Source of the DNA: Shigella phage SFN6B
Strand: one strand, 5' to 3'
DNA: 43,036 nucleotides
Sequence record: KY684082
Below, piece by piece: positions 40,624 through 43,014 of the stretch. A model generated the notes under the pieces. That model made no database searches, was not told where the DNA came from, and saw nothing but the letters and a program-made list of their open reading frames with translations. Each line of letters opens with the position of its first letter. Within the stretch, counting starts at the first letter, position 1. A program made the translations under genes and the position numbers.

Positions 40624-41218
40624 GGTTATAGCAGCACTCGCCGGGGCGACCATGCTCGGCGGAGCTATTACTGAGGTAGTCCAACACAACGAGGGTTTGA
40701 GCCTTACAGCATACAAAGACAGTGCAGGCATCCCTACAATCTGCTACGGGGAGACAAAGGGCGTCAAAATGGGCCAGAGAGCCACACTGAGCGATTGTCA
40801 GAAGCAACTGGTAGGATCAGCAGGAGAGCATGCAAAGGCTCTTGACGGGCTTCCTATGCAGCTCTCTGACGTAGCCTTAGTTGGGTCCATAGACTTCATT
40901 TATAACATAGGCGTAGCCGGCTTCAATGACAGCGCCGTGAAATGGCATCTCAAAAACCTTGATTACGCAGCGGCTGGAAAGGCTGTGCTGGACTGGCGTT
41001 ACATTAGTAAGTACCAGCAGAAGTCCCCAGGAACTGGTTGGGTTTATAAGGGTGGCAACCGCTGGATTTTTGACTGCTCCCAGTATACTAACGGGCAGCG
41101 CAATAAGGTATGCTGGGGCCTATGGGAACGTAGGCAGTGGCAAGCAAAGGCTATTGGTAATCGGTATGACTCATTGGAGTCTGCTGTTAATGCACTCATG
41201 AAAGGACAGGGGATATAA
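40607..41218 (+). CDS. SAR endolysin (T4-lysozyme-like muramidase, GH24)
   Basis: N-terminal Gly/Ala-rich signal-anchor RVIAALAGATMLGGAIT; catalytic region HNEGLSLTAYKDSAGIPTICYGETKGV (E...D...T triad pattern). Confidence 0.85.
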   Translation: MSLRTRVIAALAGATMLGGAITEVVQHNEGLSLTAYKDSAGIPTICYGETKGVKMGQRATLSDCQKQLVGSAGEHAKALDGLPMQLSDVALVGSIDFIYNIGVAGFNDSAVKWHLKNLDYAAAGKAVLDWRYISKYQQKSPGTGWVYKGGNRWIFDCSQYTNGQRNKVCWGLWERRQWQAKAIGNRYDSLESAVNALMKGQGI

Positions 41219-43014
41219 TGGCACTTACAAATTTAATTTACAATGCGAGCAAGAATAATGACCGTGAACAGTGGCGTCGTAGTCTTGTAGAGGCAGGGTT
41301 AACACTTGTTGATGGTAGCTTTGAAGAGGGTGCTACTGCAAACAGTAAAACTGATGCTGTTTGGCATATTGCCGGTGGTCAGTGTTATACGTGGGATGCC
41401 ACATTCCCTAAAACCGTTCCTGCTGCCTCAACCCCAGAAACTTCTGGTGGTGTTGATTCAGGCGCATGGGTGAGTGTTGATGATGTGGTGCTGCGGCAGA
41501 CCCTTAGCAGCGATGAAGGGTTTGATGTCGTTTCTGGTAAAATTGGCTTACCGGGGGCTGTTAAACAGTCATTAAAAGAAGCTCTCTCTGTAAGTGTAAA
41601 TATTATTAGTTTTGGTGCAGATCCTACCGGCATTAAGGATAGTTCCGACGCAATACAAGCAGCTATTGATGCTGTTTACGCACTTGGGGGTGGTGAGGTA
41701 TTTATACCTAAATGTACCGGAAGTGCAGGTAATCAGGGCGTAGGCTACCGGGTAACAAAATCTATAATGCTTAAGCCATTTGTTAATCTAAGGGGTGAAG
41801 GTATCAACTCGTGTCTTAAAGCCTACAGTGATCTCGGTAAAGGTCTGTTGGTTTTGATGCATGGCGGCGGGATATCTGGTCGTTATTTATATAATTTCCT
41901 CTTGCAGGGAAATGGCACAGGCATAGGGATTGGTACAGATATTGAATCCACTGCTGAGGCAGAACAGCAAATTTACGGTTTCGATATCCAGGGTGTTTGC
42001 GCTGAGGTGTTTGAAATAGGGATGCAATTACAGGGGTTGTGGCATTCTACGTTACGTAACTGCACTACTAGTAGCTGCCGTATGGGGTTACATCTATGGG
42101 GACAAAACGTTTCTATCAATATCACGGGATGCCATTTCCGCCGTGATCATTATTCTACATTGGGTAACACGTTTGGTATTCGCATCCAGCCTAGGGTGTA
42201 TGCGTGGAGTCCTGACCAGAGTTCAGGATCTCGTAGTGAAGCCATCATTATTGATGGGGAAACTATGTGTATTTCCGTAGATTATGGCATCTATGTTGAT
42301 GACTGCCTGGACTTGCAGATGAGTAATCTGGATTTGGATTACATTCGAAAGACTGCCGTGGCTATTATTAACGTTAATGGTGGATTTAACCTGTCAGATT
42401 CATGGATAGCTGGCGATGCTGCGTCCACAGAGCAATTTTTTGCAGTTTCTTTAAACGCCAACTCAATCCAACAACAGAAATCAATTACTGGTTTGCACTG
42501 TAATTTGCATAATGCCAACCCCCTCAATAATAACATTGGTATTAACATTACTAAGAGTGTTGGGCCTGTATACATCGGCCAGTCTACGTTTGTCGGTGGG
42601 TGGTCGGGCATAGCAATTTTTAACCATACCGATGGGGGTATTGTTATTGATTCATGTACTTTGGCAAATCAGTTGTACCTAACTGGTTCTAGTGATGTTG
42701 TGGTGCAAAATTCTGGATTAACTGGTATTGAGGAAACATTGAAGCCTACCAATTCTCATCATTACTATCGTTCTAATAGAGGCACACCTGCCACCAATGG
42801 GGTAGTAAATGTACCTGTTGCTGGGGGGGCCACTTCAGGAACACTAGCTATACCTAATGCAGACACAACTAAGTCGTATAGCGTTCGCCCATGGGCAGAT
42901 AACCCAGCTACTGTAAACGATACTGCTTCCTGTTCTGCTGGTGTAATTACAGTAAACAGACCTATAGCAGTAGGTGTCCCACTTCCAACTACAGTGGAAT
43001 ACTCATTGTTTTAA
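41218..43014 (+). CDS. Tail spike with pectate-lyase-like (right-handed beta-helix) depolymerase domain
   Basis: 598 aa; ISFGADPTGIKDSSDAIQAAIDAVYALGGGEVFIPKCTG matches the N-terminal signature of the pectate_lyase_3 / tailspike depolymerase family; last gene before the terminal repeat. Confidence 0.8.
   Translation: MALTNLIYNASKNNDREQWRRSLVEAGLTLVDGSFEEGATANSKTDAVWHIAGGQCYTWDATFPKTVPAASTPETSGGVDSGAWVSVDDVVLRQTLSSDEGFDVVSGKIGLPGAVKQSLKEALSVSVNIISFGADPTGIKDSSDAIQAAIDAVYALGGGEVFIPKCTGSAGNQGVGYRVTKSIMLKPFVNLRGEGINSCLKAYSDLGKGLLVLMHGGGISGRYLYNFLLQGNGTGIGIGTDIESTAEAEQQIYGFDIQGVCAEVFEIGMQLQGLWHSTLRNCTTSSCRMGLHLWGQNVSINITGCHFRRDHYSTLGNTFGIRIQPRVYAWSPDQSSGSRSEAIIIDGETMCISVDYGIYVDDCLDLQMSNLDLDYIRKTAVAIINVNGGFNLSDSWIAGDAASTEQFFAVSLNANSIQQQKSITGLHCNLHNANPLNNNIGINITKSVGPVYIGQSTFVGGWSGIAIFNHTDGGIVIDSCTLANQLYLTGSSDVVVQNSGLTGIEETLKPTNSHHYYRSNRGTPATNGVVNVPVAGGATSGTLAIPNADTTKSYSVRPWADNPATVNDTASCSAGVITVNRPIAVGVPLPTTVEYSLF

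Follow-up and report, generated by a model that had tools for sequence, protein, structure and literature searches.

Shigella phage SFN6B, a species placed in Drulisvirus, was analyzed over a window of 43,036 nucleotides (KY684082). The two ends of the window have 13 bases in common, and the window therefore appears to be a complete genome. The final gene of the window encodes a tailspike, exactly at the position where the first-pass annotation had placed a terminal 598-aa ORF (41218-43014, plus strand). In an exact-sequence look-up, the gene product showed a 100% match to AVD99004.1/YP_009798629.1, recorded in RefSeq as the "tail spike protein" of SFN6B, and the 598-aa product matched phrog_28781, also named "tail spike protein", over its full length (1175 bits). 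The tailspike is already annotated in SFN6B, and as a host-recognition protein it is of an ordinary and known type. Our literature search on SFN6B found no characterisation of the phage; its sole trace was a thesis title in a reference list, "bacteriophage SFN6B against Shigella flexneri", which is also the only host record that we found. The features of the locus are as follows (positions in the window).

36242..37231, or from 36185, plus strand: gp17-like adaptor, first RBP of truncated type (PF03906, orthologue alignment)
41218..43014, plus strand: tailspike gene, 598 aa plus stop (ATG-initiated ORF, exact-sequence look-up)
41218..41238, plus strand: putative docking peptide, heptapeptide MALTNLI (fit to the MALxxLV motif)
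41218..41394, plus strand: N-terminal segment specific to the chassis, residues 1-59 (nucleotide match to contig L006)
41311..41481, plus strand: Tail_spike_N (PF18668), a small beta domain, residues 32-88 (Pfam, E = 1.6e-18)
41392..41396, plus strand: recombination joint, gene nt ~175-179, codons 59-60, just before the YxWD motif (limits of blastn alignments)
41596..42777, plus strand: right-handed parallel beta-helix body, residues ~127-520 (Sf6 endorhamnosidase domain homology, Foldseek)
42238..42240, plus strand: Glu341 (GAA), equivalent of Sf6 E366 (alignments)
42337..42339, plus strand: Asp374 (GAT), equivalent of Sf6 D399 (alignments)
42796..43002, plus strand: C-terminal beta-sandwich, Tailspike_C (PF21519), residues 527-595 (Pfam, E = 3.5e-14; aligns with the Sf6 C-terminus)
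43021..43036, continuing at window 1..~47 across the 13-base end overlap, plus strand: 5′ half of a terminator-like GC hairpin, then a T-run (at the window ends; weak)

The ATG of the tailspike gene overlaps the stop codon of the endolysin gene (TAATG). On its 3′ side, the hairpin across the window ends has a folding energy of -17.3 kcal/mol, no better than that of shuffled sequences (z = -0.88), and is a weak candidate for a terminator.

A short gp17-like anchor of about 348 aa, separate from the spike, had also been described by the first-pass annotation. An ORF of that length exists (36185..37231; 348 aa from a TTG at 36185) and carries Phage_T7_tail (PF03906, Pfam E = 7e-18). Its real product, however, is probably about 329 aa long, because the orthologues begin 19 codons further in, at 36242. 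Since the window reads ATA at this position, where the orthologues have ATG, expression of the adaptor cannot be taken as certain. Pfam matched no enzymatic domain in the 329-348-aa adaptor. The adaptor is nearly identical to "tail fiber gp9" of PDB 23sh (307 aa). A C-terminal T4gp10-like branching fragment has been reported by HHpred for the first RBP of KP34viruses (PMC6872550); a phmmer comparison of the adaptor sequence with PDB sequences had no T4 gp10 chain among the matches listed.

The interval from 37244 to 41218 contains seven ORFs, encoding the small and large terminase, hypothetical proteins, a holin-like protein and the endolysin. This spacing agrees with that of the KP34viruses of group A, in which five to eight genes (maturases, hypotheticals and endolysin) separate the two RBPs (PMC6872550). 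The second RBP of the same group begins with a conserved heptapeptide, MALxxLV (PMC6872550). The N-terminus of the SFN6B spike, MALTNLI, fits this motif with the final V replaced by I, and an N-terminus of the form MALT[GN]L[IV]YN... recurs, on contigs of 42-44 kb, in many spikes whose bodies are different. By analogy with the KP34 and KP32 work, MALTNLI may serve to dock the spike on the adaptor. The KP34-like layout proposed earlier is thus borne out by the Drulisvirus genome, the seven intervening genes and the MALxxLV-type N-terminus. Like KP34 of group A (a first RBP of 307 aa and the capsule depolymerase gp57), SFN6B belongs to Drulisvirus, has PF03906 on a truncated first RBP, and encodes, downstream past the endolysin, a second RBP with the N-terminal heptapeptide. 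In contrast to KP34, the body of its spike is of the O-antigen endorhamnosidase type rather than a Klebsiella capsule depolymerase, and its recorded host is Shigella.

In a sequence search of PDB, the Tail_spike_N domain matched N-terminal regions of several chains, CBA120 TSP1/3/4 among them, and it lies in a region in which the predicted model has strands between residues 29 and 87. Pect-lyase_RHGA_epim (PF12708) was matched at residues 127-206 (Pfam, E = 1.7e-7), and PF21519 scored 53 bits (cut-off 27). The AlphaFold (AF2) model of the spike monomer had a pLDDT of 90.6. Its best five PDB matches in Foldseek were all Sf6 TSP, and the superposition on 2VBK/4URR gave a TM of 0.91 (target-normalised), an rmsd of 2.3-2.8 Å and 39% identity. 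The next matches were the O-antigen spikes CBA120 TSP3 and HK620, and no capsule depolymerase was present among the top structural matches of the model in PDB. Pfam, the PDB sequence matches, the model and Foldseek, which had been suggested as a check for a beta-helix, agree on the pectate-lyase-like (right-handed beta-helix) fold claimed in the first-pass annotation.

At the sequence level, residues 100-596 of the spike matched the Sf6 tailspike with an E-value of 8e-105 (phmmer; PDB 2VBE/2VBK/4URR/7SG7), and the BLASTP identity was 39%. Chance is ruled out for the domain and homology matches of the tailspike, because their E-values reach 1e-105. The spike is homologous to Sf6 gp14 (PDB 2VBK, 2VBE, 2VBM, 4URR) from the neck to the C-terminus; it has the same beta-helix and C-terminal beta-sandwich and keeps E366, D399 and Y400, although identity is only ~39-42%. 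The N-termini are unrelated. That of Sf6 matches the head-binding family PF09008, which was also seen in two of the homologues (P0018 and P0020), whereas the SFN6B spike has the MALxxLI peptide and Tail_spike_N and would be seated via the adaptor on a T7/KP34-type tail.

The active site of the Sf6 tailspike is located between subunits. Its carboxylates are E366 and D399, and E366A/D399A is hydrolysis-deficient (PMC7463171, PMC6116271). The columns of the equivalent residues, Glu341 and Asp374, showed no variation in an alignment of 17 homologues, and Tyr375 (Sf6 Y400), which adjoins Asp374, is conserved too. Because four of the six Sf6 positions described near the octasaccharide are changed in the spike (S246G, T315S, N340H and T443I), its binding mode or serotype range may be different from that of Sf6.

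These similarities suggest that the spike is, with high probability, the second RBP of SFN6B, an Sf6-type endorhamnosidase cutting the S. flexneri O-antigen. We infer trimer formation, adaptor docking and hydrolytic activity for this protein. By homology, the spike would be a homotrimer composed of the docking peptide MALTNLI, Tail_spike_N, the right-handed beta-helix and the C-terminal beta-sandwich. The N-terminus would dock onto the short gp17-like adaptor, itself seated on the tail, and the beta-helix would bind the rhamnose-rich O-antigen of S. flexneri LPS in inter-subunit grooves, with Glu341 and Asp374 hydrolysing Rha-alpha(1-3)-Rha links. Cutting of the O-antigen may allow the virion to pass this layer step by step and reach the outer membrane. 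The serotype recognized by the SFN6B spike would most likely be the Y-type backbone. Phage Moonfish forms plaques on S. flexneri serotype Y, but forms none on serotype 2a2, on Salmonella or on four laboratory strains of E. coli.

An Sf6-fold spike could also have another role, acting on a modified S. flexneri serotype or on an O-antigen of E. coli whose backbone is related, or being mainly a binding-only adhesin. The identity to Sf6 of about 40% and the changes at four of the six groove-adjacent positions are compatible with this. Relatives on a like chassis infect E. coli, and HRP29, whose spike is 48% identical, is described as infecting one highly specific serotype only. However, the catalytic carboxylates and Y375 are conserved, and residues 101-598 of the spike are 93% identical (465/498) to the tailspike of Moonfish, which was grown on serotype Y with unmodified O-antigen. 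Such a role is thus unlikely in comparison with cleavage of the S. flexneri O-antigen.

The first-pass annotation had further taken the spike for a capsule depolymerase that sets capsule-type specificity through a pectate-lyase-like domain, as in KP34 and the Drulisviruses of Klebsiella. The Drulisvirus genome, with 234 of its 274 DNA matches in Klebsiella phages, the PF12708 match at the start of the helix and the fact that the terminal gene in the KP34 group is usually a capsule depolymerase (PMC6872550) would fit this role, but it is very improbable: the body is a specific homologue of the Sf6 O-antigen endorhamnosidase that keeps the Glu/Asp pair and is a hydrolase, not a lyase; a ~93% identical spike comes from the serotype Y phage Moonfish, and the nearest relatives with a name (Moonfish, Buco/HRP29 and Sf6) are spikes from phages that infect S. 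flexneri; Shigella flexneri is the species named in the thesis title; and the best structural matches include no capsule depolymerase. The chassis itself gives no guide here. ZH5, the closest whole genome (92.7% nt identity), has a last gene unrelated to the spike (no similarity, best E = 1.0). The cassette has therefore been exchanged, and the chassis cannot be used to deduce specificity. A terminal beta-helix protein on a KP34-like chassis is thus not safely assumed to be a capsule depolymerase; in SFN6B it is more probably an Sf6-type O-antigen endorhamnosidase cassette. This correction bears on host-range prediction and on the choice of probe or therapeutic enzymes for S. flexneri.

Two other activities were considered for the spike and rejected. 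For a lyase mechanism, the PF12708 match is at the level of the fold and covers the first 80 helix residues, while the protein to which the spike is specifically homologous is a hydrolase with a Glu/Asp pair. For an esterase or deacetylase spike of the kind seen in Moo19 and B2, the protein showed neither an SGNH nor an esterase domain. The related gp44/gp52 complex of HRP29, which is described as lacking esterase activity, was also counted against the latter.

The closest precedent for the arrangement in SFN6B is HRP29 (identical to Shigella phage Buco, Bucovirus), a Slopekvirinae podophage of S. flexneri with an adaptor, gp44 (PDB 8ES4), and a spike, gp52, annotated as Sf6-like. The tail of HRP29 is described as a T7/Sf6 hybrid. 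Its gp44 is 46% identical to the SFN6B adaptor and its gp52 is 48% identical to the spike over residues 132-598, values too low for the window to be HRP29 itself. The gene order between adaptor and spike is alike in the two phages, with an Sf6-like spike among the last genes, and the GenBank record of Buco itself points out a resemblance to "phage SFN6B tailspike and Sf6 gp14". There are also differences. The HRP29 gp52 is 508 aa long and does not align to residues 1-131 of the SFN6B spike, which contain MALxxLI and Tail_spike_N. The HRP29 adaptor has 260 aa, without a coiled-coil segment of ~44 aa that is present in the SFN6B adaptor. HRP29 belongs to another genus and has a GIY-YIG endonuclease gene after gp52.

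The tailspike gene is a mosaic. Its nt 1-179 showed 87.7% identity to the terminal spike gene of a Drulisvirus-like contig (L006) in blastn, and had no blastn match in Moonfish or in a T7-like contig (L008). In the protein, 20 of the first 21 residues match those of another homologue (P0016). Conversely, nt 175-1797 were 92.7% identical to the Moonfish spike gene and 93.7% identical to the T7-like contig L008. The alignment to the Drulisvirus-type gene stops at nt 179, and those to Moonfish and the T7-like contig start at nt 175. Moonfish, an N4-like phage of Schitoviridae, shares the receptor-binding module of SFN6B from codon 60 onward, but has its own N-terminal segment of ~96 aa, which is common to a homologue from a metagenome (P0002). 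In two T7-like homologues (P0001/P0004), the module is fused behind the N-terminal domain of T7 gp17 in one polypeptide, at the gp17 position.

With a sharp joint and one module on three podophage families, the gene is a clean and unsurprising example of modular tailspike exchange. We tentatively propose that the module from codon 60 onward moved recently, given its ~93% nt identity, among Drulisvirus, N4-like Schitoviridae and T7-like chassis, with the joint of this gene placed inside Tail_spike_N, immediately ahead of the conserved YxWD motif. If other exchanges share this joint, YxWD might be a general splice site. As a part of the same tentative proposal, S246G, N340H and T443I could alter the serotype range relative to Sf6. 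The mosaic joint could also help the design of chimeric RBPs.

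SFN6B encodes a tail spike in the last gene of its genome (ORF 41218..43014, + strand, ATG start, 598 aa), exactly where the first-pass annotation had placed it; the ORF listing of the window, Pfam and PHROGs bear the finding out. The start codon overlaps the stop of its upstream neighbour (TAATG), which encodes an endolysin of the lysozyme family, and no further ORF lies between 43014 and the window end. An exact-sequence look-up returned an identical protein, AVD99004.1 / YP_009798629.1 (tail spike protein of Shigella phage SFN6B). The phage is classified as species Drulisvirus SFN6B, subfamily Slopekvirinae, KP34 genus (NCBI taxonomy), and at the DNA level its genome shares 89-93% identity with Drulisviruses of Escherichia and Klebsiella (e.g. 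ZH5, Minorna, KPV811, phiHAO78-1 and Hope). Because this similarity ends at window ~41161-41435, the start of the spike gene, and no similarity was detectable between the last gene of ZH5 and the spike, the spike is the variable cassette of the Drulisvirus chassis.

The spike matched phrog_28781 (tail spike protein) over its full length (1175 bits), and residues 100-596 matched the Sf6 tailspike (2VBE/2VBK/2VBM, 7SG7 and 4URR; E=8e-105, phmmer against all PDB chains), with 39% identity by BLASTP. An AlphaFold2 model, built from an alignment of the spike and 35 database homologues, had a mean pLDDT of 90.6 and was unstructured in residues 1-11 only. Beyond residue ~87 it shows a neck followed by a long series of short strands, as in a typical parallel beta-helix, and the C-terminus forms a beta-sandwich. 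The five best PDB matches to the model were all Sf6 tailspike (Foldseek; target-normalised TM 0.91, rmsd 2.3-2.8 A), and the next ones, the O-antigen spikes CBA120 TSP3 and HK620 TSP, followed far behind. The beta-helix proposed in the first-pass annotation was thus found, but its reading of the protein as a capsule depolymerase drew no support from any evidence gathered.

Features of the spike
Residues 12-25: helix (AlphaFold2)
Residues ~29-87: small beta domain (AlphaFold2)
Residues 32-88: Tail_spike_N, PF18668 (Pfam, above gathering cut-off)
Residues 127-206: Pect-lyase_RHGA_epim, PF12708 (Pfam, above gathering cut-off)
Residues 527-595: Tailspike_C, PF21519 (Pfam, above gathering cut-off)
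42238-42240, + strand: GAA codon of E341, equivalent to Sf6 E366 (alignment)
42337-42339, + strand: GAT codon of D374, equivalent to Sf6 D399 (alignment)

The Sf6 tailspike is an endorhamnosidase that cuts the S. flexneri O-antigen at its Rha-alpha(1-3)-Rha links, with octasaccharides as main products; its active-site carboxylates, E366 and D399, are located on adjacent subunits, and the E366A/D399A variant is deficient in hydrolysis (PMC7463171, PMC6116271). In the phmmer alignments, wild-type and mutant Sf6 PDB chains differed precisely at these two carboxylates, and their mapping to E341 and D374 allowed for the one-residue offset that the initiator Met introduces. The columns of E341 and D374 were invariant in a 17-sequence alignment (34-90% identity). 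Among six Sf6 positions described as near the bound octasaccharide, two are kept in the spike (V204 and Y400) and four are altered (S246G, T315S, N340H and T443I). With the carboxylates invariant and these four positions changed, the catalytic machinery is conserved and the binding groove is not identical to that of Sf6. By homology, the spike would be a hydrolase, and the label "pectate-lyase-like" describes its fold only.

Among named relatives, the closest is the Moonfish tailspike, from an N4-like Shigella phage of the Schitoviridae; it is 93% identical to spike residues 101-598 (465/498). Moonfish forms plaques on S. flexneri PE577, a serotype Y strain with unmodified O-antigen, and formed none on serotype 2a2, on Salmonella or on E. 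coli strains (K-12, B, C and K1-hybrid). The sole trace of SFN6B found in the literature searched was the title of a thesis, "bacteriophage SFN6B against Shigella flexneri", and no biochemical study of its spike was found. Because of the kinship with Moonfish, the host range of that phage and the Shigella of the thesis title, the substrate is most likely the Y-type S. flexneri O-antigen. In the Moonfish record (PQ613263.1), the tailspike CDS is annotated only from 39..974, as a 311-aa fragment, because the gene crosses the origin of the circular record; the joined ORF (68140..69166 + 1..974) encodes 665 aa, starting MNEMFSQGG..., with a Tail_spike_N-type region.

The KP34-like layout with a separate short gp17-like protein was correctly recognized in the first-pass annotation. 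This adaptor (ORF 36185..37231) carries PF03906 and is almost identical to PDB chain 23sh (tail fiber gp9, 307 aa). Seven ORFs separate its gene from that of the spike: those of both terminase subunits (small and large), two small ones, one of 134 aa, one that is holin-like and that of the endolysin. In group A KP34viruses, a truncated first receptor-binding protein serves as anchor and the second starts with the hydrophobic heptapeptide MALxxLV (Latka et al., PMC6872550). SFN6B follows this design, its spike beginning MALTNLI, and we infer that the spike docks on the adaptor. The ~40 N-terminal residues recur in many spikes of 563-687 aa whose C-terminal bodies differ; the contigs that encode these spikes are 42-44 kb long.

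The spike gene itself is a mosaic. Over nucleotides 1-179 it shares 87.7% identity with the terminal spike gene of L006, a metagenome contig of Drulisvirus type; the product of that gene is otherwise only ~44% identical to the SFN6B spike. Over nucleotides 175-1797 the identity is 92.7% to Moonfish and 93.7% to the gp17 gene in a T7-like contig of 39.7 kb, which carries the same receptor-binding module at the gp17 position, fused behind the N-terminal domain of a T7 tail fibre. The joint falls at codon 59-60, within Tail_spike_N and directly before a conserved YxWD motif. One receptor-binding module is thus carried on three different attachment solutions, as is expected of tailspikes.

The closest system is that of HRP29 (Shigella phage Buco, genus Bucovirus), described as a podophage whose tail is a T7/Sf6 hybrid and includes a gp44/gp52 complex. 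The SFN6B adaptor is 46% identical to HRP29 gp44 (PDB 8ES4) but longer, with an extra coiled-coil segment of ~44 aa. The SFN6B spike has ~90 more N-terminal residues than gp52, which does not align to the MALxxLI peptide and Tail_spike_N domain. In the Buco GenBank record, the annotation of gp52 already reads "similar to phage SFN6B tailspike and Sf6 gp14"; the SFN6B protein is publicly annotated as a tail spike, and its Sf6 gp14 kinship is on record.

The first 13 bases of the window equal its last 13 (CTCCCCCCCCCCC), so the window looks like one complete genome, cut just 3' of the spike gene. The junction (43015-43036 + 1-60) is spanned by a hairpin rich in GC (AAAGCCCC...GGGGGCTTTT), with a T-run after it, which resembles a terminator for the spike gene; the hairpin fold was not better than that of shuffles (z=-0.88). 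The poly-C run there may be a boundary of the assembly or of a terminal repeat.

Orthologous adaptors (23sh gp9, HRP29 gp44 and that of L006) begin MA[YF]SWQEQ. The corresponding SFN6B codon, at 36242, is ATA, not ATG, with a strong Shine-Dalgarno sequence (AAGGAGG) 5 nt upstream that overlaps the stop of the preceding HNH gene; the sole canonical in-frame start is a TTG at 36185, 19 codons upstream, with no obvious Shine-Dalgarno sequence. This may reflect a sequencing error, initiation at a non-canonical codon or an adaptor extended at its N-terminus. The HNH_3 homing-endonuclease ORF (35698-36231, + strand; PF13392, E=1.5e-20) is inserted between the internal virion protein and adaptor genes, adjoining the altered start codon; L006 has no gene at this position, its adaptor directly following the internal protein. 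In ZH5 (OM864357.1), the adaptor gene (locus 18254-18935) is annotated from an internal Val (VLLIRK...) with 681 "intergenic" nt upstream; the N-terminal anchor domain of this adaptor was probably missed in the annotation or is disrupted in that record. In SFN6B, a GNAT acetyltransferase domain (PF00583, residues 311-384; 29.1 bits, cut-off 20.7) lies within the large internal virion protein of ejectosome type (31479-35741, + strand, 1420 aa), suggesting that an enzyme is delivered together with the core proteins on ejection.
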